This document shows, in pieces, positions 28,123 to 41,409 of a stretch of DNA of 64,000 bases. Source of the DNA: an uncultured bacterium (GTDB lineage Bacteria > Verrucomicrobiota > Verrucomicrobiia > Verrucomicrobiales > DEV007). How positions within the stretch are numbered: position 1 is the stretch's first letter; the number at the start of each line of letters is the position of its first letter. The DNA lies in the NCBI GenBank assembly GCA_963977015.1, contig CAXBMO010000016.1:32001-96000 (forward strand), read 5' to 3'. The position numbers and the translations under genes were made by a program. The notes beneath the pieces were generated by a model. It searched no databases. It was not told where the DNA came from and saw nothing but the letters and a program-made list of their open reading frames with translations.

Positions 28123-28205
28123 ACGCAGATTCTTATCCTCTCATTCCCACCCTAAGAAAACGAACTCCCGCGCATCAAGCAAAACCTTCACGCGTCGCGG
28201 GACGA

Positions 28206-28233
28206 TTGACCTTGCGCGATTTCGTAGTACAAT
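28206..28233 (+). promoter_or_regulatory. Putative sigma70 promoter of the toxin-antitoxin operon
   Basis: TTGACC (28206) - 16 bp - TACAAT (28228), 8 nt upstream of the GTG start. Confidence 0.6.
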
Positions 28234-28241
28234 GTTTTACC

Positions 28242-28472
28242 GTGATCAAGACCATCAAAAAAATCGGCAACTCCAAGGGCATCATCCTCGACGCTGCGCT
28301 GCTCGAACTGGCGCATCTGAAGGAGGGTGATGAGCTTTCGGTAACCGTTCATGACGGTGGGGCGCTGACGTTTACGCCGGTGCAAGCTCGGAATTTTAGC
28401 GATGAGGAATTCGATGCCGCAACGAAGAAGGCGCTCGATGACTACACCAACACTCTGAAAAAGCTCTCGTGA
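28242..28472 (+). CDS. AbrB/MazE-family antitoxin
   Basis: IKKIGNSKGIIL swapped-hairpin motif; immediately upstream of the Doc gene. Confidence 0.88.
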   Translation: MIKTIKKIGNSKGIILDAALLELAHLKEGDELSVTVHDGGALTFTPVQARNFSDEEFDAATKKALDDYTNTLKKLS

Positions 28473-28476
28473 GCAG

Positions 28477-28878
28477 ATGATGAAAGACGAGATTCGTCAC
28501 CCCACACTCGAGCAAATTCGACGACTGCACCGTGCCGTTCTCGTCCAGCACGGAGGTAGCGACGGGATTCGAGATCTGGCACTGCTGGAGAGTGCCCTCG
28601 CAGCACCTCAAGCCACGTTCGGGGGTGAACCGATCATGTCTGATTTGGTGGAGATCGCGGCGGCTTATCTCTTTTATCTTTGCCGCAATCATCCCTTCAT
28701 CGATGGCAATAAACGAGTGGGATTGGCAACGTGTATCGTTTTCTTGAGGCTAAACGGCCTCGAACCGCCCCCGGATGGGCCTCTCTGGGAGGAACTCGTC
28801 CTCGACGTTGCCGCTTCAAAGTTGGATCGGGAGACGACGACGGAGCGATTGCGGGAGTTGCTGTGCACCAAGGGATGA
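28477..28878 (+). CDS. doc: Fic/Doc (death-on-curing) toxin
   Basis: GIRD..LLESAL..P and HPFIDGNKR Doc-type motif. Confidence 0.92.
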   Translation: MMKDEIRHPTLEQIRRLHRAVLVQHGGSDGIRDLALLESALAAPQATFGGEPIMSDLVEIAAAYLFYLCRNHPFIDGNKRVGLATCIVFLRLNGLEPPPDGPLWEELVLDVAASKLDRETTTERLRELLCTKG

Positions 28879-28900
28879 AGGCGGAGGGATGAAGGATGAA
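28873..28900. repeat. Heptamer tandem repeat GGATGAA (x3 plus one degenerate unit)
   Basis: ggatgaa-ggcggag-ggatgaa-ggatgaa between convergent stop codons. Confidence 0.7.
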
Positions 28901-28901
28901 G

Positions 28902-29644
28902 TTACTTCGGCCCTGGCGCGAACCTCCGTCGATATTCCAGGGGCGTGATTCCCATCTCGACGCGGAAGGCTTTGGTGAAGTGGCTTTGGTCGTAGAATCC
29001 ACATTCGAGGGCGACGGAGCCGACAGGTTCGTTCGATTCCTCCAGACGGCGGCGGGCCATGAGGAGGCGCACTTTGCCAACGTAGTCGCTCGGGCTCATG
29101 TCGAAAAGGCGCCGGAATTCGCGCTGCAACTGACTAACGGATAAGTTCGACATTTTGGCGAGATCATCGATTGCGATGCGGTGCCCGAACTCGCGATGCA
29201 CGAATTCCATGACCGGCGTCAGGCGATTGTAGTCACCCGGAGCGAGACCCCGGCGTGTTCGTAAGGCCGCATCACGCCGCAAAGTCCGGCTACGTCATGG
29301 TTACGATCAAAGAGCGGAATCTTCGTGGAGAGAAACCAACGGGGAAGCCCGTCGAAACCGAGAACGAGCCAAACCTGATCCGGCAAGGGTTCACCTGACT
29401 TCATGACCCGGCGATCCTCATCGACGTATTGTGAGGCCAAGGCCGGAGGATGAAAGTCGAAGTCCGTTTTGCCAACCACCTCGCATTCGTCCTGAAACCC
29501 ATGCAGAATGAGAAAACCTTGGTTCACTTTCACGAACCGGCTCTCCGCATCCTTGATGAACAAGTAAACCCGCGGCAAATAATCGAACAGCGCCGCGATC
29601 TGTTCGGGAGAATCCAGGTTCTGAAAAAAGCTTGCCGGGCTCAT
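28902..29644 (-). pseudogene. PAS-domain AraC transcriptional regulator, frameshifted near 29250
   Basis: PAS half (FIKD..SRF, GKTDFDFHP, STKIPL) lies in the 29219-30511 frame. The AraC HTH (CGFYDQSHFTKAF, GITPLEYR) lies in the 28902-29282 frame. The switch is at or near a C4 run at 29248-29251. Confidence 0.85.
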
Positions 29645-29769
29645 GGGCACACCAAATTTTCGGGTATCGCCTCGGTCTCGCGAATCTTTTTTGTGACCAA
29701 TTTCATCCTTGGTGAAGTCCGGGGCCTTCCAGTTGCCAACAATGTAGTCAAGGCTCGGCCCCTGAGCCC

Positions 29770-30320
29770 CGTCGTTCCCTGCGAAATGTCCCCAACCAAA
29801 CGCGGAAGATTCCCGGAAGTAAAACTCGGCATCGTCAAAGTAATTGCCAACCAGATTATAGCGCGCGGGAGCAGCCATGTAGGACCAGTCATCATCCCAT
29901 TTGTAGAAGTCGGCGTTGTAGGCTGGCGCGTTTCCACTTTGGGAGATGAAATTGAAGCGAATATCGAAAATCGGACCGGCGGGCGTCCCCGGATCCGGAA
30001 TACCCGTTTGAGTAATCGATAGATAGGAACCGGAGGAACCGACCCGCGGTGTCCAGCCATTGTTGTGATTGTGCCACACGTTGTGGTGGAAGCTGTGACG
30101 GGAGCGCACCTGCGCGGTTTCGAGACGCCCGCGAAGGGGCGTCCCGATGGCGTGGTCGAACGGTTTGCTAACCTTCCCATTTTTTGGTGGGGGATTGGGC
30201 CCTATTCCGACGCTGTCGGCAATCAGGCTCCATTGTACGGTGACTCGGCCGGATTCGTTGATCGAGAGGGTTTCGTCCGTGGCCCAGGACGCCGAAATGT
30301 GGTCGAGGATGACATAAAAA
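29770..30320 (-). pseudogene. Internal fragment of a PL1-type pectate lyase (beta-helix)
   Basis: VILDHISASWATDE, VTVQWSLI, FHHNVW, TPR, FDIRFN and YNLVGNYF motifs; no start or signal peptide. Confidence 0.7.
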
Positions 30321-30353
30321 AGGCCCGTCCCCAATAACCATTCGGTTGTCTCT

Positions 30354-30623
30354 TCCCGCGCGGGTATCGACGCGGTCCGGGCTGTGCTCGTAGCGTGCCG
30401 CGCCGCAGAGCTGATCGGCCTCCAAGTCGAGCAGGGCGTTGAGGGTGTCCTCCACGCTCTTGCGCACCATCTCATCGAGGTGGCCGCGAATCTCGCCTTC
30501 GTTGATTTCAACGATTTTGCCCGCGATCCGGGCTTCTCTTTCGGTTTTTGGTTCGGTTGTCATTTTGGGTCTGTTAGTTCAGAACACCAAAAAGTAAATG
30601 TGCGAAAGAAATCCTACGTTATC
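30354..30623 (-). mobile_element. Truncated IS256-family element (transposase N-terminus plus putative terminal repeat)
   Basis: ATG 30563: VEDTLNALLDLEADQLCGAARYE...DTRAG, then abrupt loss of similarity. IS256-like end sequence aaatgtgcgaaagaaatcctacgttatc at 30596-30623. Confidence 0.8.
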
Positions 30624-30727
30624 CAATGCCGATAGCAATGAGGGTCGTTCGTTTCGTGGTTCTGCGCTTCTTTCATAGTGGTGTTTCGGGCGTCAGGTTT
30701 TCTCACGTTCTAGCCGTCGATCTCCAC

Positions 30728-30894
30728 GAGCTCGGTCACAAAGCCGAGGTCAACAAGGTTCACGTCAACGACCTCCACGCCACGATTCTGCATCAGCTAG
30801 GGCTCGATCACGAGAAACTGACCTACACCTACGCCGGTCGGAGGTTTCGGCTGGCCGATGTTGGGGGGCATGTGATCCGCGTATTGTCAGCTAG
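30728..30894 (+). pseudogene. Orphan 3' tail of a DUF1501 gene (copy 1)
   Basis: [47 protein letters not shown], a typical DUF1501 C-terminus; the rest of the gene is absent. Confidence 0.85.
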
Positions 30895-30969
30895 CCTAGG
30901 AGCAATATCTCGATCCCGATCGCCCACCAAATGAAGTGGCCGGAGAAGTGTAACCATTTCCTACGAACT

Positions 30970-31767
30970 TCAATACTTTGACTTGAATTTACCAGAGTAG
31001 CGCGCAGCTACAACAATAAACAGAACAATGAGTAACGCACCTCCGAAAAATACAATCAGTCCGGTCGTGCCACCTTCATCTCCCTCATTCCCAACAGTTA
31101 CGCCCGGTGATAATGCTTCACCTTGATCCACCCTAACAGCCGGAAGTTGATCACTCTCTTTTCCCGCGCCAACAACGCTTCCATCCTGTCCAATACTTTC
31201 AGGCAATGGCCTCCCGCTATTTTGGCGAGCCAAAACCACGTTTCTTACCAAATCACCCCTCTTGGCCTTTAAAAAGAGCAGTTCGTAGTCTGTCCCAACC
31301 GCGACTTCAAGAACATCGTCCAACAACTGCTGCACTCTTGAGGATTTGTAGTTGAAGGCAACAAAACCGTCTTTTTCGCCTTGGCCAATCACTGCGCGAA
31401 AAACAACCTCCGGAGCAAGGTCTCCCTGCTTAACAAACTGTATCGCCGCTTCCAAGACTTCTAGGTATTCCTCAGAAGAAAGGGCTTCGCAAACACGGAG
31501 GATAACAAGCTGCTCCTTAGGTGTGGGTGCTACTTCTGAAAGGTGTGTGTCGAAGATACCTCGCCAACTGTCTGCAATATTTTCAAGTATTGCTAACTCA
31601 TCGTGATTTGGATTGCGTCGAACAAAACCGTCACTTCGATCAGTGATAACTACAGCTCCATTTTCACTAACTGATGCCTTGCTGAGAATACTTTGAACGT
31701 TCTGTATATCAGACGAAACAAGAATTGTGACTGCTATTGAAAATAGTGATATTGCGATTGGATTCAT
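30970..31767 (-). CDS. Exported helical protein with C-terminal membrane anchor; candidate immunity protein
   Basis: N-terminal hydrophobic leader, C-terminal TM helix with basic tail, ATGA overlap with the upstream gene, AT-richer than the flanks. Confidence 0.7.
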   Translation of the reverse strand: MNPIAISLFSIAVTILVSSDIQNVQSILSKASVSENGAVVITDRSDGFVRRNPNHDELAILENIADSWRGIFDTHLSEVAPTPKEQLVILRVCEALSSEEYLEVLEAAIQFVKQGDLAPEVVFRAVIGQGEKDGFVAFNYKSSRVQQLLDDVLEVAVGTDYELLFLKAKRGDLVRNVVLARQNSGRPLPESIGQDGSVVGAGKESDQLPAVRVDQGEALSPGVTVGNEGDEGGTTGLIVFFGGALLIVLFIVVAARYSGKFKSKY

Positions 31768-34256
31768 TCTTTGAAGCGCCCAAAATGTGAAGGTTGATAA
31801 TTCATATCGATACTTAGGTGTACAGATTTATTTACGTCTATTGACCCCGCACCGATCCAACTGCCATCGTAGTCAAGGATACCCATATGGCCTTGGCCTC
31901 CTACAATACCGATTGAGATCGTTCCGATACCTTCGGTCCAAGTTACAATATCGCCGGGCTGGGGGGTTGTGTTGTTACTCAACCATTGCCAACCTTCGAT
32001 CAAGTAGATGGAACTCCACCAATCAACCGCCCCGGGCGGAACTTCACGCGGCGTAAAATCCACATCCGGCCAACCTAACGGTGCACCGGTTGTTGTCCCT
32101 ACATCGGAGGTTGAAAAATCAAAATCGTTCCATGTCTTTGTCGGTATTGTAGCATCAACCGAATTTGCCCTTTCAAAAACAAACAAATTACACTTATAGC
32201 TACCTATGAAATCAAGAGTTGGATCCACTCCATATCCCGGCTTGAAAGCCGACGACTTGGCGTATTCGGTACTCCCAAGCTTCGAAACGGCTGCATTACG
32301 GATTTCAAGTTGTTTTTGGGTTTCTACCACACCAAAAAAATCTAGTTCCCCTTTTCTGAGGTTCTCGCTGTAAAGCCCTCCTGAATTCTCACCGTGCGGT
32401 GCGTCAATTGAACGGACAAAGTTTACAGCCGTTTCTCCAGTTGTCGTATCAACTATAACCCTTGTCTGAAAAATCCCTGTTTCGGTAGCGAAATGTAAAT
32501 ATTTCTGACCTCGTGCATGAGTACCTAAAGAGGCCCAGGGTGTGAACCCACCGTCTCCTTGAAGTTGGCGTGCCTGCCAAAAAATAAAATGTGAAGGGAT
32601 TTCATCATATTCGATTCCTTCCAGCGTAAAATCTATCATTTCCATTTGTTTCACAACTAGACCGTTTTCAGGGGGAGCCGAGTCGTTGTGGCGTTTGATT
32701 TCTATCCTTAGTTCCAACAACGTCCACTCCACAAACACATCCTGATAATACCATTGCCCATCTTGAATTCCACCGAGATGACGGGGGTCAGGATTAATCA
32801 ACAAGGGCTCCGAGACCACCGCTCCGGCCGGGACAATCAATTTTTCGATCCTTGTGATCGGTTCATCCTGCCCCCAATAAACTCTCTCCTTGACCAGAAC
32901 CAACTGAGAGAAGTCTTCCTCCATGGGTTCAGCCAATCGCAAACGCACTCGTTGGGAGGTGCTAAACCACGAAGAGGGTCCATGACCGTCGTCAACTTCA
33001 AACCCACTTGAGGAATGGGCGGTTCCTTGATCCGCTGGAGTCCAGTCCGTGATGATTTGCCTTCCGTTCTCCTCCAGGTAAATCTCGTCGTACTCCAACC
33101 ACCAGGGACCGTATAAATAGGCCTCCGGCCCTGGATCAACCGGTTGAAATCCATCTCCACCCGATCCCGATCCTGAATCTGATCCATCACCGGAATCCGT
33201 CGAACTTCCATCGGGTCCGCCCTCATCGGAAGGTGAGGGATCAGGCGACGTGCCTGGGCCACCACCCAGAGAATTCTCTTCCGACGAAGCTGGGTCCGTC
33301 GAATCAGGCCCCTCCTCGGGGCCATCAGATTCCTCCGAACTCGGCGGATCGTCAGGATTCCTTGGGTCCGTGCCAAACACGAAAACTTCATCTCCATCAA
33401 AATGACCATCTCCATCGGTATCGGCGAGATGATCCCAAGTCTGGTGAACGATTTCCTGAGCCAACGTCAACCCGTCAGAATCGATATCGCTTTCCCCATC
33501 CTGCGGCAAAAGCGGGTGATAGGGATATTGAGCTTCCAGTTGATCATTGAGGCCGTCTCCATCCGTATCGGCCAACCAAGGATCGGTGTAGACAAAAATG
33601 GGATCGACGGCACCTCCAAAATTCACTCCTGGTTTGCGAGCCTGTTCGCTGACCGGGTCGATCGCGTAGGTCCAATAGCCGTCCAGTTCCAGGAGATCGG
33701 GAATTCCATCTCCATCAGAATCCTCCAGGTCATGGTAATCGGCCGGATACGAGTCAGGATTGAGAAAGGAAAGATCCGGCCAGTTGGAATTTTCCCATTC
33801 ATTACCATCCGGATCGGTAGGATTGGCGACTGTTTCCTCTCCCTCCGTTTCGGGCGAGTAGTCTTCGTACGAACCTGAATCTTCCGGGTAAGTCTCACCC
33901 TCGTAATACCCTTCGCTATCCGAGTAGCCTTCTGATCCATCGTCAATTCCTTCCGATCCGTCGTAGTAGCTGTCAGTATCGGTTTCTTCACCGTAGGAAT
34001 CCCAGCCATAGTCGGTATCAGGATCTTCGTAGTATTCAGAATCCGTCGATGAATCGTAAGCGTAAGGGTCGTAACCTTCTCCGTAATATTCGTCCCAATA
34101 ATCGTCTTCGTAGTAGTCGTAAGAACCGTCGTCCTGCGCCTGAAGCAGGACCATGGTGAAAACCCCAAGGACAACTACCATCCCGACCTGAGGGCCTCTT
34201 GTTCGAAAACGTTGCAGCAACAAATTCCTGACTCTACGCATATCTACCTTGATCAC
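31764..34256 (-). CDS. Large secreted acidic protein with DxDxDG (TSP3-like Ca-binding) repeats and C-terminal NlpC/P60-CHAP-like domain; candidate toxin
   Basis: Signal peptide; DSDGDG, DTDGDG x2 and DIDSDG repeats; YKCNLFV...PQPGDIV...GHMGI. The start may be ATG 34241. Confidence 0.78.
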   Translation of the reverse strand: MIKVDMRRVRNLLLQRFRTRGPQVGMVVVLGVFTMVLLQAQDDGSYDYYEDDYWDEYYGEGYDPYAYDSSTDSEYYEDPDTDYGWDSYGEETDTDSYYDGSEGIDDGSEGYSDSEGYYEGETYPEDSGSYEDYSPETEGEETVANPTDPDGNEWENSNWPDLSFLNPDSYPADYHDLEDSDGDGIPDLLELDGYWTYAIDPVSEQARKPGVNFGGAVDPIFVYTDPWLADTDGDGLNDQLEAQYPYHPLLPQDGESDIDSDGLTLAQEIVHQTWDHLADTDGDGHFDGDEVFVFGTDPRNPDDPPSSEESDGPEEGPDSTDPASSEENSLGGGPGTSPDPSPSDEGGPDGSSTDSGDGSDSGSGSGGDGFQPVDPGPEAYLYGPWWLEYDEIYLEENGRQIITDWTPADQGTAHSSSGFEVDDGHGPSSWFSTSQRVRLRLAEPMEEDFSQLVLVKERVYWGQDEPITRIEKLIVPAGAVVSEPLLINPDPRHLGGIQDGQWYYQDVFVEWTLLELRIEIKRHNDSAPPENGLVVKQMEMIDFTLEGIEYDEIPSHFIFWQARQLQGDGGFTPWASLGTHARGQKYLHFATETGIFQTRVIVDTTTGETAVNFVRSIDAPHGENSGGLYSENLRKGELDFFGVVETQKQLEIRNAAVSKLGSTEYAKSSAFKPGYGVDPTLDFIGSYKCNLFVFERANSVDATIPTKTWNDFDFSTSDVGTTTGAPLGWPDVDFTPREVPPGAVDWWSSIYLIEGWQWLSNNTTPQPGDIVTWTEGIGTISIGIVGGQGHMGILDYDGSWIGAGSIDVNKSVHLSIDMNYQPSHFGRFKE

Positions 34257-34347
34257 GGGTTAGACCAAAGATCCTGGCAACCTTCAATCTTCACACCAGT
34301 TGTAGGAGAATCGTCAGGAAGGTGACAAGATTTTTCTCTCGTTGAAC

Positions 34348-34461
34348 ACCATTCAACATGAGTTAGGGCTCGATCACGAAAAGCTGACCTCCACCTACGC
34401 CGGGCGTCGATTTCGGCTGACCGACGTTGCGAGCCATGGCATTCATGACATCATCAGCTGA
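34348..34461 (+). pseudogene. Orphan 3' tail of a DUF1501 gene (copy 2)
   Basis: Manual translation [37 protein letters not shown]; aligns with 30782-30894. Confidence 0.85.
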
Positions 34462-34518
34462 TCGCCCCTGCTTCCTGCTTCTCCCTTTACCCCAGAGGCG
34501 CATTTGCTCGGTTCGCAT

Positions 34519-34655
34519 TTACCGCGACTGGAAAATGTCGCTGCTGAGACACTCCACGATGAGCGTCCGGAGGCCACGGTCGCGGACCGTCTCGTAGATT
34601 TCGTCGATCTCGAAGTCGTCGACCGGCTCCATGTGACGCCCGGTCGAGTAGCTGA
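34519..34655 (-). pseudogene. Orphan 3' tail of a DUF1585-domain (DUF1592 family) gene
   Basis: YSTGRHMEPVDDFEIDEI...GLRTLIVECLSSDIFQSR* resembles the DUF1585 C-terminus; no upstream gene body. Confidence 0.65.
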
Positions 34656-34783
34656 TTCGCAACCATCGGGAAGAATGACTCTCTCGGTCCCTTTTCAAGA
34701 ACCGTTCGTCATGCGGTATTTTTACCAAAACATGCGGCCTCCTTCATTGCGTGCTGTTTGTTCTTCGAGCATGCTTTCATGCC

Positions 34784-36172
34784 ATGTTCGACTTTCTCGC
34801 TGAAACCCCTGGAGATCATGCTCGGCTCTGCGCTGGAAAGAACCGGCGCGAATTTCTCCAAATTGGCGCGCTTGGCGCCGCCGGACTTTCGCTCCCCCAA
34901 TATCTTGCGGCGAAGCAGAATGGCGCGGTCAAACCCGGTCATGATAACCGTTCGTGCATCATGATCTTCAACCTCGGGGGCCCCAGCCACATCGATCTGT
35001 GGGACATGAAACCCGATGCCCCGAGCGAAATTCGCGGACCCTTCAAGCCCATTCGTACCAACTCACCCGAGATCGACATTTCGGAGATTCTCCCGATGCA
35101 CGCCAAGGTCGCGGACAAGTTTTCGCTGGTGCGCAGTTGTCATCATGGCGGCGCAGCGGTGCATGACGCCGGTTGGCAGATCATGCAGACCGGGCGACGT
35201 TTCACCGGAGGCATTTCGACACCGCACGCCGGAGCGGTGACGAGCTATTTGAAGGGACGAAAAAGCGATCTGCCGCCCTTCGTCGTCCTGCCGGAATTGA
35301 TGGGACGGGGTGGCGGAAATCTACCGAACGGACAGGCCGGCGGATTCCTGGGGAAAGCCCACGATCCCTTTGCGCTGATGGCCGATCCCTCGGTGAAAGA
35401 TTTTGAGGTGCCGGATCTGCTTCCCCCGGATCAGATCGGCGCGGCCCGGCTCGACCGTCGTCGCAAGATGCGCGACATCGTCGAAGAGAGCGTGAAGAAT
35501 TTCGAAGCGAGCGAGGATGCGCGTCTGCTCGACGAAAACTTCCAGGCAGCCTTTCGCATGATGACGAGCGAGCAGGCCCGCAGCGCGTTCGACCTTTCCC
35601 AGGAACCTGAGAAAGTCCGGGAGCGCTATGGGATGAACCGGGTCGGTCAGTGCTTCCTGCTTGCACGCCGCCTCGTGGAGAACGGAGTTCGCTTCGTCAC
35701 CGTGAACACCTTCCTCACGGTGTTCAACGAACTAAGCTGGGACATTCACGGCTCCAAACCCTTCATCAGCGTGAAGCAGATGAAGGAGCAGGTCGCCCCG
35801 ATGTATGACCAGGCCTACTCGGCGTTGCTCGAAGATCTCTTTGATCGTGGATTGTTGGATGACACGCTGGTGACGACGCTCGCGGAATTCGGTCGGACGC
35901 CCAAAGTCAACCCGGCCGGCGGTCGCGATCACTGGCCGCAGTGTTTCACCGTTTCGTTCGCCGGTGGCGGCGTTCAAGGTGGTCAGGTCGTCGGCGCAAG
36001 CGATCCCATTGGCGGTTTCCCTGCCGAGCGGCCCGTCGATCCTGCCGAAGTGGTGGCCACGATTTTCCACAGCCTCGGACTCGACCCGGAAGGCCACCTT
36101 CCCGGCCCTGCCGGACGCCCGTTCCCCCTGGTCGATTTCGGAAACGAGCCCATTCGCGAATTGTTCGGCTGA
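34784..36172 (+). CDS. DUF1501 family protein
   Basis: NRREFL Tat motif; GGPSHIDLWD, ARRLVE.GVRFV, WDIH, EFGRTP and GRDHW. Confidence 0.92.
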   Translation: MFDFLAETPGDHARLCAGKNRREFLQIGALGAAGLSLPQYLAAKQNGAVKPGHDNRSCIMIFNLGGPSHIDLWDMKPDAPSEIRGPFKPIRTNSPEIDISEILPMHAKVADKFSLVRSCHHGGAAVHDAGWQIMQTGRRFTGGISTPHAGAVTSYLKGRKSDLPPFVVLPELMGRGGGNLPNGQAGGFLGKAHDPFALMADPSVKDFEVPDLLPPDQIGAARLDRRRKMRDIVEESVKNFEASEDARLLDENFQAAFRMMTSEQARSAFDLSQEPEKVRERYGMNRVGQCFLLARRLVENGVRFVTVNTFLTVFNELSWDIHGSKPFISVKQMKEQVAPMYDQAYSALLEDLFDRGLLDDTLVTTLAEFGRTPKVNPAGGRDHWPQCFTVSFAGGGVQGGQVVGASDPIGGFPAERPVDPAEVVATIFHSLGLDPEGHLPGPAGRPFPLVDFGNEPIRELFG

Positions 36173-36191
36173 CCAAACCTGGAATCCCATC

Positions 36192-38669
36192 ATGAAACCC
36201 CACTGCGCAATCTGGATTGCAGCCTTCGCCTTCGTCAAATTCGCGACGGCCCAAGAACTGGCGATCCTCCCCTCCACCATCAACCTGAGCGGACCGGAGT
36301 CCACGCAACGTCTGATCATCGCGCTCCAACTCGGCGAGGGGGAATATTCGCAAGGGCTCGACGGGGTCGCCCTCGCTTCCGACAATCCCAAGGTCGCGCA
36401 GTTCGAGAATGGCGCCGTTATTCCCAAGTCGAACGGAACCGCGACCATCGTTGCGACAACAACCGACGGAAAAACCGCGAAAGCCGTCGTCACCGTGAGG
36501 GACTTTGGCCAAGAAACCGAGTGGAGTTTCCGCAACCACGTTCAACCGGTCCTCGCCAAGCAGGGCTGCAACATGGGGGCGTGTCACGGCGCACTGGCGG
36601 GCAAAGGCGGCTTCCGGCTGAGCCTGCGAGGTTATGATCCCGAGGCGGACCACCACACCATCACGCGGGAAGCTCGCGGCCGGCGGATTGAGTTGAATGA
36701 TCCCGGTCGCAGCCTGCTTCTCACCAAGGCAACCACGGCGCTGAAGCACACCGGCGGCAGGCAGATTGTCGTCGGCTCCCGAGACTACGAAGTCCTTTCC
36801 CGTTGGATTGCGGAAGGAGCGAAGCCACCTCAGGCGAGGGATCCACGCCTGACCCATCTGGAGATCTTCCCTCCCCTCTCGATTCTCAAACCGGGCGACA
36901 AGCAACGCATCGTCGTTCGTGCCACCTACTCGGATGGACGCGAGGAAGATGTGACACACTGGGCAAAGTTCACGTCGTCCAATGAAGCGGTCGCACTCGT
37001 CGATGAAGATGGCTCCATTTCCGTGATCGGGCCTGGCGAGGGAGCTGTGACCGCCTGGTTTTCGAGCCAGATTGTGACCGCCCGAATCTCAGCTCCGTTT
37101 CCTCACCAGATTCCAGCCCAGGTTTATGCCCGGGAGTCTCGAAACAATTTCATCGACGCCCATGTTCTCGACCAACTCGAACGGCTCAACCTGAAGCCCT
37201 CACCTCGTTCCACCGATTCCGAATTCATTCGCCGCGTCCATCTGGACACGATCGGTCTTCTCCCGACTCCAGCCGAAACCCGGGCGTTCCTCGCGGATTC
37301 GAATCCGAAGAAGCGCGAGCGCCTCATCGATGCCCTGCTCAGGCGCGAGGAATACGTCGATTACTGGGCCTACCGTTGGTCCGACATGCTGCTGGTGAAC
37401 GGGAGAAAACTGCGCCCGGAAGCGGTCAAAGCCTACTACTCCTGGATTCGCAGCTCCGTGGAGAAGAACCTGCCGTGGGATGAAATGGCCCGCCAAATCG
37501 TCACCGCCACCGGAAGCAGCGTGGAGAACGGCGCGACGAACTTTTTCGCGGTTCATCAGGATCCGGAAAACATGGCGGAGAACGTGAGTCAGGCATTTCT
37601 CAGCTTATCGATCAACTGCGCCAAGTGCCATAACCATCCTCTTGAGAAGTGGACCAATGATCAATACTATCAATTCGCAAATCTCTTCTCCCGCGTCCGG
37701 GCGAAAGGTTGGGGAGGCGATGCCCGCAATGGCAATGGAATCCGGACCCTCTACGTTGAGCCGCGTGGCGAATTGATTCAGCCGCGCACCGGTCAACCTC
37801 AGATTCCGGCTCCGCTCGACGCCGAGCCGATCGATCCGGATGACACCCGCGATCGTCGAGAAGTTCTCGCCGCGTGGCTGACTTCGCCGGACAACAATCT
37901 TTTCAGCCGCTCGATTACGAATCGCGTTTGGGCGAACTTTTTCGGCATCGGCCTGGTTGATCCGGTGGACGACCTGCGAGCTTCCAATCCGGCCAGCAAC
38001 GAACCCGTGCTCCACGACCTGGCCAACTACCTCGTCCAGCAAAACTTCGACCTGAAAGCCGTGATGCGCCTCATCCTGCAAAGCGAGACCTATCAGCGCA
38101 GCAGCGTTCCGTTGGCGGAAAACAAGGACGAACATCGCTACTTTTCGCGCTATTATCCGCGCCGTCTCATGGCGGAGGTGCTCCACGATGCCGTCGCCGG
38201 AATCACCGAGGTTCCAACCGCGTTCAACCAGATCACCCTCAGCGATGGCAGCGTTCAGAAGACAGAGTTTTACGACAAAGGAACGCGGGCGATCCAGCTT
38301 TTCGATTCCGCCGTCGCGTCCTACTTCCTGAAAACGTTTGGTCGCAACGATCGCGAGATCAGCTGCGAATGCGAACGCTCGAACCAACCCAGTCTCGTTC
38401 AGGTTTTGCACGTTTCGAACGGGTCGACACTCAACGACAAATTGAAGGCACCGGAAAGCATCGTGACCAGCCTCACCAAAGACCATTCGGACGATCGCAA
38501 GATCGTGGAGCAAGCCTACCTGCTCTGCCTTTCCCGGGTTCCAACCGAACGCGAAGCCTCCAGCTTTGCTGAAATACTGGCGAGCACGCCTCCCGCCGAA
38601 AAACGCATCGCGGTGGAAGACCTGTTCTGGTCACTCATGAGCTCACGGGAGTTCCTCTTCCAACACTAA
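36192..38669 (+). CDS. DUF1549/DUF1553 protein with Ig-like (Big_2) domains
   Basis: Signal peptide; GCNMGACHG, FIRRVHLD..G..PT, CAKCHNHP, NRVWANFFG.GLV.PVDD and SREFLFQH. Confidence 0.9.
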   Translation: MKPHCAIWIAAFAFVKFATAQELAILPSTINLSGPESTQRLIIALQLGEGEYSQGLDGVALASDNPKVAQFENGAVIPKSNGTATIVATTTDGKTAKAVVTVRDFGQETEWSFRNHVQPVLAKQGCNMGACHGALAGKGGFRLSLRGYDPEADHHTITREARGRRIELNDPGRSLLLTKATTALKHTGGRQIVVGSRDYEVLSRWIAEGAKPPQARDPRLTHLEIFPPLSILKPGDKQRIVVRATYSDGREEDVTHWAKFTSSNEAVALVDEDGSISVIGPGEGAVTAWFSSQIVTARISAPFPHQIPAQVYARESRNNFIDAHVLDQLERLNLKPSPRSTDSEFIRRVHLDTIGLLPTPAETRAFLADSNPKKRERLIDALLRREEYVDYWAYRWSDMLLVNGRKLRPEAVKAYYSWIRSSVEKNLPWDEMARQIVTATGSSVENGATNFFAVHQDPENMAENVSQAFLSLSINCAKCHNHPLEKWTNDQYYQFANLFSRVRAKGWGGDARNGNGIRTLYVEPRGELIQPRTGQPQIPAPLDAEPIDPDDTRDRREVLAAWLTSPDNNLFSRSITNRVWANFFGIGLVDPVDDLRASNPASNEPVLHDLANYLVQQNFDLKAVMRLILQSETYQRSSVPLAENKDEHRYFSRYYPRRLMAEVLHDAVAGITEVPTAFNQITLSDGSVQKTEFYDKGTRAIQLFDSAVASYFLKTFGRNDREISCECERSNQPSLVQVLHVSNGSTLNDKLKAPESIVTSLTKDHSDDRKIVEQAYLLCLSRVPTEREASSFAEILASTPPAEKRIAVEDLFWSLMSSREFLFQH

Positions 38670-38682
38670 CCTGCTTCCCACC

Positions 38683-41409
38683 ATGCCACGTATCCTCGCC
38701 TTCTTTTCGCTTGCGCTCATCACGGCAAACGCGGCACCGGATTACCAGAAAGACATCGCTCCGTTGCTTCGCCAATACTGCGCGGGCTGTCACAATGACG
38801 AAGACCTGGAAGGTGATTTTTCGGTCGAGTTTTTCGCCGATGTTCAGGAAGGAATGAACCTTCGTCCCGGCAATCCGGAAAAGAGCGAACTGATCCGCCT
38901 GATGACCGGCCAGGCCAAGGAACCGATGCCGCCTGCCGACGAACCTCAGCCTACTGAAGCGGAGATCTCCGTCTTTCGGGAATGGATTTCCGCCGGCGCG
39001 AAAGGACCAACCGGCGATGCCGACCTGTCGATCCTCTCCAGTCTCGACGTCCCCAAAATCGCGGCTGCGCCAACTCAAACCGCAATCACGGCTGTCGCTC
39101 ACGCTCCCGATGGCTCAAGGGCGACGGCACGATATGGCAGGATCGAACTAACGGACGCGGCTGACTCCAAAAAGGAAACCCTTCGCGTGCTCGGGCCCCT
39201 TCCCGGCAAAGTGAACGCGCTGCATTTTTCCAAAAACGGAGCCCAACTCATCGCGGCATCCGGGATCACGGGATTGAACGGAATTGCCACCGTCTTCGAT
39301 GTGGAATCCGGAGAGCCCGTCCTTGAGATTGGCGATGGCTACCATCGTGACGTGCTCTATGACGCCGAGTTTTCGCCGGATGGAAAGCACATCGCCACAG
39401 CGGGCTACGACGCGAAAATCGCGATCTGGGATCGCGCGAGTGGGAACCGAATCCGGACGATCGAAGTCCACAACGGCGCGATTTTCGATCTCGCCTTCAG
39501 TCCCGACGGATCCGTTCTCGCCAGCGCGAGTGGCGATTCGACGGTCAAGATCTGGAAGGTCGATTCCGGGCTTCGGCTCGACACGCTCAACCAACCTCAA
39601 GGCGAGCAATTCAGTGTCGCGTTTACGCCCGACGGCAGGCACATCCTCGCCGGTGGCGCGGACAATCGCATCCGCATGTGGCGATTCATTTCGAAGACCA
39701 AACCGCAAATCAATCCGCTGATTCAGGCGCGATACGCCCACGAAGATGCGGTCGTGAACGTCGTGTTCTCGGCCGATGGCAAGAGCTTGATTTCCTCGGG
39801 TGACGATCGCGCTCTCAAGCAATGGAGCCTTCCCGGCCTTGAGCAAGTCCGAGCCTGGGAAAACCAGCCCGATGTGGCTGCCGCATTGAGTTGGGAAGCG
39901 GAAAAGCTCTTCGTCGCGAGAATGGATGGCTCGACCGCGACCCTTTCCCTAGCGGCTCCGAAAGGCCGGCGCGATTTGACGAGTGACTCCCCCGTGGTGC
40001 AACCTTCCAACACGGACCTTTCGCCGATCCTGCTCAGCGAGGTCGAGCCGAACAATGGACCGGCCGAAGCGATGTCCGCGCAGAGGCTGCCCGCCGAAAT
40101 CCGCGGCAAGATCGAGGCCGAAGGCGACTTCGATCATTTCTGGTTTCGCGCCAAACGCGGTGAACCCTGGGTCTTCGAGATCAACGCCGCGAGGACCAAG
40201 TCCAAGCTCGATTCCAAAGTTGAGATTCTGCATGCCGACGGCACCCCGGTTGAGCGGGTCAAACTCCAGGCAGTTCGCGATTCCTGGTTCACGTTCCGCG
40301 GGAAAGACTCCGATACGTCGAACGATTTCCGGGTTCACAACTGGCGCGAAATGGAGCTGAACGAATACCTCTACGCGAACGGCGAAGTGGTGAAGCTCTG
40401 GCTCTATCCCCGCGGCCCCGATTCCGGTTTCAAGGTCTATCCGGGCGTTGGGAAACGTCGCTCCTACTTTGGCACCACCGCGCTTTCCCATGCCCTTGGT
40501 CAGCCAACTGCGATTGTCGAACCGATTCCGCCCGGCACGGAGCCGGCGCCGAACGGCCTGCCGGTTTACACGATTTTCTACGAGAACGACGACGATTCCG
40601 AACGCCACCTCGGCACGGATTCCCGGCTCGATTTTGTGGCTCCGGCAACGGGCGACTACGTGGTTCGCGTGAGCGATGTGCGCGGATTCGGCGGCTCAGA
40701 TTTCTCTTACACGTTGAAGATTCGGCAGCCGAAGCCTGAATTCAACGTCGCGATCACGGACGTGAAGGATGTCGTCGTCAGCCCCGGCAGCGGCAGGGAG
40801 TTTAACCTCAAAGTGGATCGCCACGATGAGTTCATGGGCGAGATCCGGGTCGATATCTCCGGCCTTCCACCTGGATTTTCGGCGACCACTCCCATCATCA
40901 TCGAGGCGAACCAGCACCTGGCTTCCGGCGTTCTCTTCGCTGAAGCCGATGCGCCCGTTCCCTCCGCCGACCGGGCAAACCAGGCGAAGTTCATCGCAAC
41001 CGCCAATCTGGGCGGACGCAAGGTCACCCGCGAAGTCGGCACGTTTGGCACCATCAAACTGGGAGAACCGGCTCCCATCACGATCGAGATTCAGGCATCA
41101 AACGACGTCATTGAAATCCGCCCCGGCGAGACCGTGACCGCAAAAGTGGTCGCCAATCGTGGTGAATTCAAAGACCGCATCACCCTGGGGAAGGAAGATT
41201 CGGGCCGCAATTTCCTGCACGGTCTCTATGTCGACAACATCGGTTTGAGCGGGCTCATGCTGCCGGAGGGCGTTAGCGAGCGCACCTTTTTCATCACCGC
41301 CGCGCCCTGGGTTCAACCGAGCGAGCGGCTCGTTCATTTGCGCGCGGATCAGGGTGGGAAACAGGCCACCCGTCCGGTCCTACTCCGGGTTCTGGAGCCG
41401 AAGGAGTAA
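38683..41409 (+). CDS. Planctomycete cytochrome c + WD40 repeats + PPC-like domains
   Basis: CAGCH; several FSPDG...D..(I/V)(K/R)(I/M)W repeats; EVEPNN and DSRLDF.AP..GDY motifs. Confidence 0.88.
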   Translation: MPRILAFFSLALITANAAPDYQKDIAPLLRQYCAGCHNDEDLEGDFSVEFFADVQEGMNLRPGNPEKSELIRLMTGQAKEPMPPADEPQPTEAEISVFREWISAGAKGPTGDADLSILSSLDVPKIAAAPTQTAITAVAHAPDGSRATARYGRIELTDAADSKKETLRVLGPLPGKVNALHFSKNGAQLIAASGITGLNGIATVFDVESGEPVLEIGDGYHRDVLYDAEFSPDGKHIATAGYDAKIAIWDRASGNRIRTIEVHNGAIFDLAFSPDGSVLASASGDSTVKIWKVDSGLRLDTLNQPQGEQFSVAFTPDGRHILAGGADNRIRMWRFISKTKPQINPLIQARYAHEDAVVNVVFSADGKSLISSGDDRALKQWSLPGLEQVRAWENQPDVAAALSWEAEKLFVARMDGSTATLSLAAPKGRRDLTSDSPVVQPSNTDLSPILLSEVEPNNGPAEAMSAQRLPAEIRGKIEAEGDFDHFWFRAKRGEPWVFEINAARTKSKLDSKVEILHADGTPVERVKLQAVRDSWFTFRGKDSDTSNDFRVHNWREMELNEYLYANGEVVKLWLYPRGPDSGFKVYPGVGKRRSYFGTTALSHALGQPTAIVEPIPPGTEPAPNGLPVYTIFYENDDDSERHLGTDSRLDFVAPATGDYVVRVSDVRGFGGSDFSYTLKIRQPKPEFNVAITDVKDVVVSPGSGREFNLKVDRHDEFMGEIRVDISGLPPGFSATTPIIIEANQHLASGVLFAEADAPVPSADRANQAKFIATANLGGRKVTREVGTFGTIKLGEPAPITIEIQASNDVIEIRPGETVTAKVVANRGEFKDRITLGKEDSGRNFLHGLYVDNIGLSGLMLPEGVSERTFFITAAPWVQPSERLVHLRADQGGKQATRPVLLRVLEPKE

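Follow-up and report, generated by a model that had tools for sequence, protein, structure and literature searches.

The window, the whole stretch of 64,000 nucleotides that was analysed, holds a mosaic of about 5 kb (about 29700-34700), flanked by a PAS-AraC regulator gene on one side and by a DUF1501/PSCyt2-PSD1/WD40 operon on the other. Inside the mosaic a two-gene cassette lies between two orphan 3′ ends of DUF1501 genes, named t1 and t2. The features of the locus are listed below with their positions in the window.

28902..29644, minus strand: PAS-AraC regulator gene, apparently frameshifted (PAS part 29219-29644; AraC HTH part 28902-29282, in another frame)
29700..30340, no strand: left part of the mosaic
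30343..30625, minus strand: remnant of an IS256-family (Mutator/IS256-type) element, its outer end and the first ~74 transposase codons
30712..30894, plus strand: t1, an orphan 3′ end of a DUF1501 gene (~60 codons) that lacks 1 nt close to its stop (from Pfam and homology to paralogues)
30970..31767, minus strand: 265-aa protein, the conserved partner, which starts with a signal or anchor and has a transmembrane helix at its C-terminus (from the translation)
31764..34241, minus strand: 825-aa secreted protein with a signal peptide, an acidic region, TSP3 calcium-binding repeats, an Ig-like domain and a C-terminal NlpC/P60-fold domain
34347..34461, plus strand: t2, orphan DUF1501 3′ end of 37 codons and the stop, in the upstream region of the cassette operon
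34519..34650, minus strand: orphan tail (3′ end) of a PSCyt1/PSD3/PSD5/PSD4/PSCyt3/PSD2 gene, in convergent orientation to t2
34751..41409, plus strand: right flank, an intact native operon of DUF1501, Big_2/PSCyt2/PSD1 and PSCyt1/WD40 genes (from Pfam)

The locus is scarred, as is evident from the frameshifted PAS-AraC gene, the IS256-type remnant and the PSD2 tail, whose intact orthologue occurs in the congener G003 but not in this genome. The PAS-AraC gene matches PAS_4 (E 1.3e-13) and, in the ORF 28902-29282, HTH_18 (E 1.8e-24). In its relatives PAS and HTH stand in a single frame, and run X6 has 2 nt fewer at 29248. The left part of the mosaic shows no Pfam family in its 4 ORFs, no second copy in the genome and no DNA match in 40 relatives; run X5 contains it, with 4 other letters in 29969-30209. 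The IS256-type remnant matches Transposase_mut at positions 8-70 of 379 (27.9 bits, cut-off 21) and shows 87-88% identity with the final ~280 bp of a ~1.48-kb element with at least 2 copies in the congener G001. It is the sole Transposase_mut match of the genome. About 282 bp are kept, outside the t1/t2 repeats, and the whole transposase with both ends, which would make a full IS256 element, is absent at 30343-30625. The tail at 34519-34650 matches PSD2 (DUF1585) at positions 31-74 of 74 (E 4.9e-6) and has 81% nucleotide identity to the end of the intact 843-aa gene of G003; this genome contains no full-length copy of a PSD2-type gene. Both of these relics are additions to the original prediction, which described the cassette as a toxin-like unit bracketed by the two DUF1501 tails.

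The right-flank operon is conserved in 80 metagenome loci and corresponds to a four-gene module type (DUF1501 + PSCyt1/Big_2/PSCyt2/PSD1 + PSCyt1/WD40) described in passages of PMC3542564. Of 62 related metagenome loci whose sequence extends 700 nt or more upstream of the operon, 21 have a divergent PAS homologue within about 350 nt of it. Here the gap between the PAS-AraC gene and the operon is ~5.1 kb, hence the synteny is broken at this locus. Neither the cassette nor an orphan tail like t1 or t2 stands upstream of the operon in any of 79 non-identical metagenome loci.

Anatomy and kinship of the DUF1501 tails

DUF1501 is a very common planctomycete gene, and its family is hugely expanded.

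The tails form a true direct repeat, 30781-30872 and 34347-34438, which is 92 nt long and 82% identical in the repeat search. Aligned globally, 30781-30894 and 34347-34461 agree at 87 of 115 columns, with a single 1-nt gap shortly before copy 1 ends. Given this gap, the last residues of copy 1 before the stop are IVS, corresponding to IIS in copy 2. Most paralogues end in A or G, whereas the final S is common to t1 and t2. Translated, t1 matches Pfam PF07394 at positions 337-387 of 390 (E 1.6e-14, 54.4 bits, cut-off 27), and its 55 aa are 73% identical to a paralogue on contig C35 of the same genome, with homology extending back to about 30712. The shorter t2 (37 aa, 68% identity to the C35 paralogue) matches positions 355-390 of PF07394 below the cut-off (E 1.5e-4, 23.2 bits) and a tail HMM made from 74 paralogues of the genome at E 6e-10. 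When three full-length paralogues serve as tblastn queries against 29000-31000 and 33900-34800, only the tails are returned, with no gene body beside them, and the intact DUF1501 gene at 34751-36172 has a C-terminus unlike both. The original prediction had already proposed that both copies encode only DUF1501 C-termini with an equivalent stop, that copy 1 needs a 1-nt gap and that neither tail has a parent gene here, and all of this holds.

The similarity of t1 and t2 is due to family homology, not chance; ~74 full-length paralogues of the genome carry the same tail motif. The longest identical runs, of 16 nt and 12 nt, both fall in the most conserved codons of the family. Conservation would suffice to explain these cores, and an att function is not needed.

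Over the 33 shared codons the tails differ by 13.0 synonymous differences at 25.3 sites (pS 0.51) and 10.0 non-synonymous differences at 73.7 sites (pN 0.14); for the 21-codon core alone the values are 0.41 (pS) and 0.04 (pN). This is an ancient divergence under purifying selection, and the tails therefore originate in two different functional genes. As a full-length reference for their kinship we used G132:C574, an intact 504-aa gene of another genus. On the same 99 nt, t1 shares 76 bases with t2, 74 with the reference gene and 73 with the C35 paralogue, and t2 shares 75 with the reference gene. BLAST ranks the match of t1 to the G132 gene (82.8% of 134 nt, 139 bits) above that of t1 to t2 (81.5% of 92 nt, 90.6 bits). 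On the same columns ordinary intact paralogue pairs reach up to 79%, and the t1-t2 pair ranks 9th of 2926. Within its own genome alone, the best match of t1 is t2 and vice versa. By these comparisons t1 and t2 are not copies of one sequence, and there is no special kinship between them.

The tails could also mark the joins of a chimera, produced when metagenome assembly joined unrelated DNA at the repeated motif. The genome is a 51-contig draft, and the t1 motif draws many paralogue contigs in the run data. However, each junction is crossed, with 0 other letters, by independent contigs from runs X1 and X2 (30509-30763, 30759-31022, 30766-31097, 34174-34355 and 34246-34798), and in run X6, which comes from a different study, a single contig spans 34160-34659. 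The 41-kb metagenome scaffold L048 contains the whole arrangement at 100% identity. We therefore regard an assembly chimera as scarcely credible.

The two-gene cassette

The cargo begins 75 nt past the t1 stop and ends 90 nt short of t2. It looks imported by horizontal acquisition, because its GC content is low (0.49, the genome value being 0.56), none of 40 relatives matches it at the DNA level, and its protein relatives have a different taxonomic spread: they occur at 59 genome loci, nearly all of them in Verrucomicrobiota, Kiritimatiellia or Lentisphaerae, the closest reaching 42% identity. No DUF1501 tail lies closer than about 6 kb to the NlpC/P60-module relatives at these 59 loci, thus elsewhere the cassette is independent of such tails.

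In the 825-aa protein a signal peptide and adhesin-like repeats are seen, and no T6SS or other delivery domain was found. The model of its C-terminal module has a pLDDT of 90.1. Every one of the top 25 VIA matches of this model is an NlpC/P60 or CHAP hydrolase, with Z 9.1-11.4 for an alignment that covers residues 141-326, and the best VIA-align match is 6bim_A (Z 11.4, rmsd 3.1, 118 residues aligned). Foldseek alone matched only the Ig-like N-terminal part of the model. The match of the protein to Pfam CHAP stays below the cut-off (E 6.5e-4, 20.6 bits, cut-off 26), and the NCBIfam search returned nothing relevant. In the alignment of 35 family members C185, H286 and D293, the putative catalytic residues, are invariant. 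Judged from the modelled fold, the C-terminus is a cysteine peptidase or amidase domain, which probably cuts peptidoglycan. The term toxin-like in the original prediction is thus borne out as far as the protein ends in an NlpC/P60-fold domain. A weak match to Binary_toxB (E 0.0073) is a calcium-binding repeat and was rejected as a toxin domain.

The 265-aa protein matches no Pfam or NCBIfam family. A relative of it stands directly downstream of an NlpC/P60-type gene in 18 of the 59 loci. We suggest that it is an immunity-like partner, probably an inhibitor or immunity protein. The C-terminal module (Ig-like + NlpC/P60) has 270 cluster representatives at E <= 0.001. This unnamed module with its conserved partner gene, spread in Verrucomicrobiota and kin and rare in Planctomycetota, may outweigh the tails in use.

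Origin of the arrangement

Orphan DUF1501 tails are rare in this 6.9-Mb genome: the tail HMM finds three, against ~74 intact genes. Two of the three are t1 and t2, which point the same way, are separated by 3.5 kb and are placed exactly at the borders of the low-GC cargo. By a rough reckoning, three random places in 6.9 Mb would give such a placement about once per several hundred trials. Among the best 150 t2-like matches in 134 genomes of the family there is no other true orphan tail; 11 short frames among these matches all lie at a contig end (six by inspection or measurement, and five because they start within about 700 nt of a contig start). The congener G001 has 128 DUF1501 matches, with 4 C-terminal fragments that have no matching N-terminal part beside them, 1 N-terminal fragment and 4 further genes split in two frames. 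Such fragments are ordinary debris in G001.

The third orphan tail lies on contig C30. There an intact DUF1501 gene is followed by 12.4 kb of other genes and then by an orphan tail that shares 89.5% identity with the end of that same gene (pS 0.27, pN 0.035). This locus looks like a one-step tail displacement, and such events therefore probably occur in this genome. In the genome G002 the DNA directly 3′ of the stop of the orthologous gene differs in length and content, with 3.7 kb against 1.9 kb before a shared 199-aa ORF.

The original prediction took the conserved 3′ ends of DUF1501 genes for att-like sites or recurrent recombination anchors. In this explanation a dedicated recombinase, or the cell's own recombination, would repeatedly insert, swap and excise cassettes. 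It draws on the direct repeats at both edges of the low-GC cargo, on the second locus with an orphan tail and on the difference in G002. However, no integrase, resolvase-like gene or intact transposase was found in or beside either locus. The tyrosine integrase family PF00589 has 6 matches in the genome and none on C16, the window's contig, or on C30, in line with the earlier remark that the window shows no integrase. The tails come from two functional genes with no special kinship and share no identical core longer than 16 nt. A joint between t1 and t2 is absent from the contigs of four runs, although contigs drop rare variants. Orphan tails number three against about 74 intact genes and do not recur in the family genomes beyond t1 and t2 among the matches above, the cassette family elsewhere has no link to them, and the same 5 kb holds other truncated genes that need no such mechanism. 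A working att-like or recurrently used anchor is thus highly improbable. The anchor idea as a whole is weakened rather than refuted; of the original interpretation, the foreign-looking cargo, the tails exactly at its edges, their rarity and the C30 locus are borne out.

Another explanation is a single import that displaced a gene tail. One DUF1501 gene would once have stood here, converging on the PSD2 gene. DNA from another planctomycete would have brought the cassette together with the end of its own DUF1501 homologue. One side of it would have joined by homology within the gene and the other illegitimately, or else a circle would have integrated Campbell-fashion. The gene would then have ended in t1, the incoming end, with the resident end t2 pushed behind the cargo, an arrangement like that of icd/e14/icdC or of rhs/cdiA ends after displacement. 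An IS256-type element and a deletion would later have destroyed the gene body. In agreement with this, t2 corresponds to a part of t1 and runs in the same direction, the cargo lies 75 nt from t1 and 90 nt from t2, orphan tails are rare but here paired, and the IS remnant lies ~90 nt from the 5′ edge of t1. A donor and a resident tail would also show selected divergence, as t1 and t2 do, and C30 presents the complete form with an intact gene. Further, run X5 compared with the window (longest 32 of 162 pieces) has 2 differences in 1160 nt over four cassette pieces and 23 in 1116 over four flank pieces, a hint that a move or a sweep of the cassette postdates the split of the strains.

Against such a displacement, RecA-type homologous exchange normally needs far higher identity than 76 of 99 bases with runs of at most 16 nt. 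The key feature, an intact gene, is missing at the window locus, and no recombinase was found. No donor arrangement is known, a DUF1501 gene end standing beside the pair in none of the 59 loci of cassette relatives. The extra relics show that truncation alone yields orphan tails here. We consider displacement, the main rival of the relic reading given below, possible but doubtful. A wider version seems unlikely to us: conserved 3′ ends of expanded planctomycete families (DUF1501, perhaps PSD2-type) would be recombinase-free landing strips for DNA that brings a homologous gene end, and with every import the resident end would be displaced, leaving orphan tails as borders of the cargo. This would resemble the displacement at rhs/cdiA loci but affect ordinary multicopy genes, the window being an old, partly eroded case and C30 a fresher one.

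We favour, at about even chances, that the tails are relics of two different, anciently diverged DUF1501 genes around imported cargo, and neither the two copies made by one insertion nor a working attachment site. The mosaic would have accumulated between the PAS-AraC gene and the DUF1501/PSD1/WD40 operon, which are neighbours in many relatives. Several cuts and joins, which we infer to be illegitimate recombination and deletion next to the IS256-type element, would have left four truncated pieces: the IS end, t1, t2 and the PSD2-gene tail. The acquired two-gene unit, encoding a putative Sec-exported TSP3/NlpC/P60 protein with its conserved membrane-anchored partner, would have entered into or between these pieces. 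The 3′ ends would persist as debris because they are harmless without promoter or start, while 5′ pieces would be expressed with export signals and hence purged.

Four observations count against the relic reading: the pairing of t1 and t2 at the cargo edges, their mutual best match in the genome together with the common S ending, the fact that all three protein-gene relics of the mosaic are 3′ ends, and the C30 layout. The difference between cassette and flank in X5 does so as well and hints at a younger cassette. No relative was found that is close enough to show the ancestral state or an empty site of this very locus.

If the relic reading is true, the gene pair, acquired horizontally, simply lies among ordinary genome debris, and direct repeats can look like att sites when they consist of the conserved ends of multicopy genes. 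A count of silent against replacement changes on the repeat would then separate a true duplication from two genes, and the junction upstream of the conserved operon would be a rearrangement hot spot. The C30 locus, which may also outweigh the tails in use, makes gene-tail displacement a candidate for a general route of gene import.

Comparison with known systems

In E. coli K-12 the 3′ end of icd occurs twice in direct orientation around an insert, e14 (and phage 21), with the pseudogene icdC as the outer copy and e14 being a cryptic prophage, as passages of PMC13626634 describe. The window is similar in that the copies differ mainly by silent changes and that the outer copy is an orphan C-terminal fragment (PMC13626634, same passages). 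In icd/e14 the target gene is intact, the prophage insert has its own site-specific recombinase and excision is observed, according to these passages of PMC13626634. In contrast, the window tails have no gene body, no recombinase and no joint seen, and they are about 24% apart. Both are orphans, an intact gene with a second end being present at the C30 locus only, and an integrase or recombinase domain is absent from both cassette ORFs.

At rhs/cdiA toxin loci C-terminal displacement leaves orphan modules, and homology-facilitated illegitimate recombination is known in naturally transformable bacteria. The likeness of both to the arrangement here is that homology in a conserved coding stretch anchors imported DNA, which displaces the old gene end and leaves it as an orphan. 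However, rhs/cdiA orphans start in the conserved core upstream of the variable toxin tip, with high homology. Here the repeat is the conserved end of a non-toxin, enzyme-like gene, with an identity too low for easy homologous exchange.

A further comparison is with ordinary pseudogene debris of expanded planctomycete families. The right flank belongs to the module type of the planctomycete DUF1501/PSCyt/PSD families (PMC3542564), and fragments of DUF1501 genes are found also in the congener G001. The passages of PMC3542564 that describe these families are silent on orphan tails or cargo between them.

Last, the gene pair may be compared with NlpC/P60 and CHAP peptidoglycan hydrolases that have a cognate inhibitor or immunity protein, such as LytE-IseA (8i2e, Z 10.4) and the T6SS pair Tae3-Tai3 (4hz9, Z 9.3). 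Unlike in these, the similarity here is below Pfam cut-offs, no delivery domain was found, and partner binding and activity are predicted only. As in both of them, a papain-like NlpC/P60 fold with a conserved Cys-His-Asp is encoded with a conserved small gene directly downstream.

The two DUF1501 gene ends and their divergence

The genome to which the window belongs (6.9 Mb, 51 contigs) carries about 74 intact DUF1501 genes and also encodes PSCyt/PSD families typical of Planctomycetota. Two stretches of the window, t1 and t2, are ends of DUF1501 genes in direct orientation, bracketing a two-gene cassette:

~30712-30894: t1, coding for the C-terminal ~55-60 residues of a DUF1501 protein (PF07394 positions 337-387 of 390, E 1.6e-14)
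34347-34461: t2, the last 37 residues of a DUF1501 protein

The original prediction described these as diverged direct repeats encoding DUF1501 C-termini without a parent gene, and this description is borne out. The stretches 30781-30872 and 34347-34438 share 82% identity over 92 nt. With extension to the stops 87 of 115 columns match and the alignment contains one 1-nt gap, located in copy 1 as had been noticed. The longest identical run between the two is 16 nt. They have the ...S* ending in common, and the gene body is absent for both.

A tail HMM, based on the C-terminal 60 residues of each of the 74 paralogues, was searched against all six frames of the genome. It gave 82 matches in frames of at least 300 aa and only three significant matches in short frames, namely t1, t2 and t3, the last on contig C30. 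The count of orphan tails in the genome is thus three, with two of them flanking the low-GC cassette. These two are co-oriented, 3.5 kb apart and located at the edges of low-GC DNA, which is not what random scatter would give; they are also mutual best matches within the genome. Rarity, pairing and mutual best match are the strongest point for the proposal that the conserved DUF1501 ends act as recombination anchors or att-like sites.

In relatives the best matches of t1 and t2 are ends of intact paralogues with no neighbours in common, therefore the tails offer no synteny argument. Among the 150 t2-like matches listed (134 genomes) no orphan tail besides t1 and t2 is established. A contig end truncates each of the 11 short open frames among them (six were inspected or measured, and five start at most ~700 nt from a contig start). 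A limited literature search, covering for PMC3542564 the passages that mention DUF1501, found no orphan DUF1501 tails.

Over 33 shared codons t1 and t2 differ by 13.0 synonymous changes on 25.3 sites and 10.0 non-synonymous changes on 73.7 sites; the conserved core of 21 codons has pS 0.41 and pN 0.04. The divergence is mostly silent, therefore both drifted apart as parts of working genes and not as dead duplicates. Over the same 99 nt, 76 bases are identical between t1 and t2, 74 between t1 and a gene from another genus (G132, contig C574; intact, 504 aa), 75 between t2 and this gene, and 73 between t1 and the paralogue on contig C35 of the window's genome. BLAST scores t1 higher against the G132 gene (139 bits) than against t2 (90.6 bits). 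Intact paralogue pairs reach up to 79% on the same columns, and the t1-t2 pair is 9th of 2926. The 'diverged direct repeat' therefore consists of two members of a single DUF1501 subfamily, separated by roughly the distance between genera, and this excludes a long target-site duplication; such in-situ duplication is ruled out by the silent-site divergence. As the tails now stand about as diverged as genera, RecA-type exchange, unlikely at this similarity, is improbable between present-day t1 and t2.

The junction in relatives and in sequencing runs

A search with the right-flank DUF1501 gene, which is intact, gave 80 metagenome loci. One of them (L048) is 100% identical throughout and has the same arrangement as the window. 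All the others keep the operon DUF1501 / PSCyt2-PSD1 / PSCyt1-WD40, a type of module reported in PMC3542564. Neither the cassette nor an orphan t1- or t2-like tail is found upstream of the operon in any of the 79 non-identical loci; t1-like matches occur there in five loci, all inside full-length paralogues. A divergent PAS homologue lies within ~350 nt of the operon in 21 of the 62 loci having at least 700 nt upstream, and not in the other 41. In the window ~5 kb separate the start of the PAS gene (~29644) from that of the operon (34751), where many relatives have an intergenic spacer.

In one related metagenome lineage (L123, L124 and L126) the orthologous operon is preceded by a co-oriented, intact DUF1501 paralogue. 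In L123 (4753-10631) it converges on two minus-strand sulfatase genes, which fill the same slot. At this junction, DUF1501 modules in tandem with variable genes in between are therefore a normal layout, and this makes it plausible that t1 and t2 originate from two resident paralogues.

DNA search of 28200-38700 in 40 relatives and inspection of individual loci gave no usable empty-site comparison. Genomes of the same genus are only 73-88% identical to the window DNA and are rearranged at the locus. The congeners G001 and G002 have different neighbours upstream of the operon, and a third, G003, has pieces of the region on three short contigs. Upstream of the orthologous operon of G003 (L003:1-1323) we also observe, in place of the ~5-kb mosaic, a putative AbrB/PIN-like pair of vapBC type and the beginning of a putative DUF1552-like gene, both named from their translations.

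Four sequencing runs, belonging to three studies, supplied Logan contigs that were aligned to 27000-38000. Contigs of the runs X1 and X2 span every junction of the present arrangement with no differences, which rules out an assembly artefact to the point where we regard its probability as negligible. No joint between t1 and t2 is found in the assembled contigs of the four runs, which would miss rare forms. Contigs of X6 (another study, ~2% different) cover both flanks and 34160-34659; the eight bins 31037-33972 have zero depth and are bridged by no contig, a lack of cover that we do not count as absence. For X5 (another study, depth 2-3) the longest pieces listed differ from the window by 2 of 1160 nt in the cassette (31528-33751) versus 23 of 1116 nt (~2%) in the flanks (28181-30209 and 37157-37486). 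This pattern hints that the cassette may be younger than its flanks and would fit its recent spread between strains.

Neither cassette ORF contains a recombinase domain. The genome has six tyrosine-integrase matches, none on contig C16, to which the window belongs, or on C30; hence the earlier observation that no integrase is visible extends to the whole of C16. The geometry of the tails would suit an active att or anchor system. Beyond the geometry we find no support for it, and with no recombinase, no joint between the tails in the assembled contigs and no identical run longer than 16 nt we consider such a system very improbable.

The cassette genes

The cassette has a GC content of 0.49 versus 0.56 in the genome and 0.57-0.60 in the flanks. 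It comprises the following features:

31764-34241, minus strand: gene of an 825-aa protein
31767-32744, minus strand: Ig-like + NlpC/P60 C-terminal module of the 825-aa protein
30970-31767, minus strand: gene of a 265-aa protein

The 825-aa protein consists of a signal peptide, an acidic Asp/Glu/Tyr-rich stretch, TSP3-type calcium-binding repeats (under the Pfam cut-off), a Pro/Ser/Gly/Asp-rich linker and the module of 326 aa. A word-index search for homologues of the protein found only two. Exhaustive HMMER search with the module found 270 cluster representatives at E <= 0.001, and in nearly all of the 150 matches listed (proteins of 109-2920 aa) the match reaches within a few dozen residues of the C-terminus. 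The N-terminal parts of these proteins contain TSP3, Big, cadherin-like, fn3 or RCC1 repeats. The module sits C-terminally on very different adhesin-like proteins.

An alignment of 35 members shows C185, H286 and D293 to be invariant. In the AlphaFold model of the module (pLDDT 90.1) an NlpC/P60 fold comes after an Ig-like domain. All of the 25 top VIA-align matches belong to NlpC/P60 or CHAP cell-wall hydrolases (Z 9.1-11.4); among them are LytE together with its inhibitor IseA, and the T6SS amidase Tae3 together with Tai3. Foldseek against the PDB gave only Ig/PKD-like folds, for the N-terminal part; the NlpC/P60 fold comes from VIA-align. The module is an unnamed family, with no Pfam model above cut-off.

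In species-representative genomes the module occurs at 59 loci (L128-L186), almost all in Verrucomicrobiota, Kiritimatiellia and Lentisphaerae, with best identity of 42%. A relative of the 265-aa protein, a signal-peptide protein of ~190-290 aa, is encoded directly downstream in 18 of the 59; a DUF1501 tail is present in none. Family-wide protein search with the 825-aa protein matched 74 of 134 genomes. Outside the window's genome, only two partial relatives among the 150 rows listed (G001:C32 and G075:C39) reach beyond the TSP3 repeat region, and no DUF1501 tail lies near either. We read the cassette as a horizontally acquired, predicted secreted peptidoglycan hydrolase with a putative cognate membrane-anchored inhibitor or immunity protein. 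The 825-aa protein may be either an antibacterial toxin or a wall-remodelling enzyme.

Neighbouring relics, the C30 locus and the origin of the tails

The tails are accompanied by other damaged genes, listed here together with the full-length IS copies of a congener:

28902-29644, minus strand: PAS-AraC regulator gene, split between two frames near 29219-29282
30343-30625, left of t1: IS256-family remnant, the outer 282 bp with the first ~74 transposase codons (Transposase_mut positions 8-70 of 379)
34519-34650, minus strand, right of t2 and convergent with it: orphan tail of a gene of the type PSCyt1/PSD3/PSD5/PSD4/PSCyt3/PSD2 (PSD2 positions 31-74 of 74, E 4.9e-6)
L016:4205-5681 and L017:3821-5298 (congener G001): full-length IS256-family copies, 85% alike

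G001 has at least two copies of this ~1.48-kb element, 87-88% identical to the remnant, which is the sole such match in the window's genome, where no intact copy is found. The PSD2-type tail is plainly the remains of a lost gene: its DNA is 81% identical to the end of a gene that is intact in G003 (843 aa), and the window's genome holds no intact copy. Its homology to the G003 gene ends at the stop codon, so that such an end is no special mark. The PAS-AraC gene is a single frame in relatives, and run X6 is without 2 nt at 29248; the split marks either a recent pseudogene or variation between strains. The promoter and terminator scan gave no promoter-like sites and five terminator-like sites versus 6.4 expected, and the Rfam search gave no matches. 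As a background, the 128 DUF1501 matches of G001 include four unpaired C-terminal pieces, one N-terminal piece and four split genes.

We suggest, at about even probability, that t1 and t2 are debris of two genes. This is argued by the ancient, selected and equidistant tails with their very short identity runs, by the other truncated genes in the same 5 kb, by the DUF1501 fragments present as background in G001, and by the finding of neither a donor arrangement nor recombination machinery.

A second place in the same genome bears on a different history:

C30:19668-33620 (locus L019:5669-19906): intact DUF1501 gene, 12.4 kb of other genes, then orphan t3 just upstream of thrS

The 12.4 kb encode DUF2971, two unknown ORFs, an ECF sigma factor, an unknown 318-aa ORF, an LRR protein, FecR, a Ser/Thr kinase, an unknown 277-aa ORF and a CHASE2 cyclase, with no recombinase among them. 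The tail t3 corresponds to the last ~50-60 codons of the C30 gene, with a 4-nt deletion at its 5' edge. It is 89.5% identical to the end of this gene over 153 nt (pS 0.27, pN 0.035), nearer than the G002 orthologue is (pS 0.44). Relatives have thrS without t3 and with none of the 12.4-kb genes alongside. Probably, import from a near relative displaced the resident gene end. C30 shows that displacement events are possible in this genome, and because of this we keep as a tentative reading of the window that one import pushed a resident DUF1501 tail behind the cassette. The pairing, the orientation and the exact bracketing of the cassette speak for it, together with the rarity of orphan tails, their common ending, the C30 precedent and the X5 hint. 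The rest of the probability belongs to histories other than debris, displacement, an att system or artefact.

The layout of the window is similar to that of icd/e14/icdC, as it is given in PMC13626634. C30 has the complete icd/e14/icdC-like layout, again with selected divergence, but with no recombinase. Unlike an integrative element by its defining tests, the window has no intact target and no recombinase, and no excision is seen in the assembled contigs. Displaced gene ends are also carried by rhs/cdiA loci, to which the layout of the window is similar.
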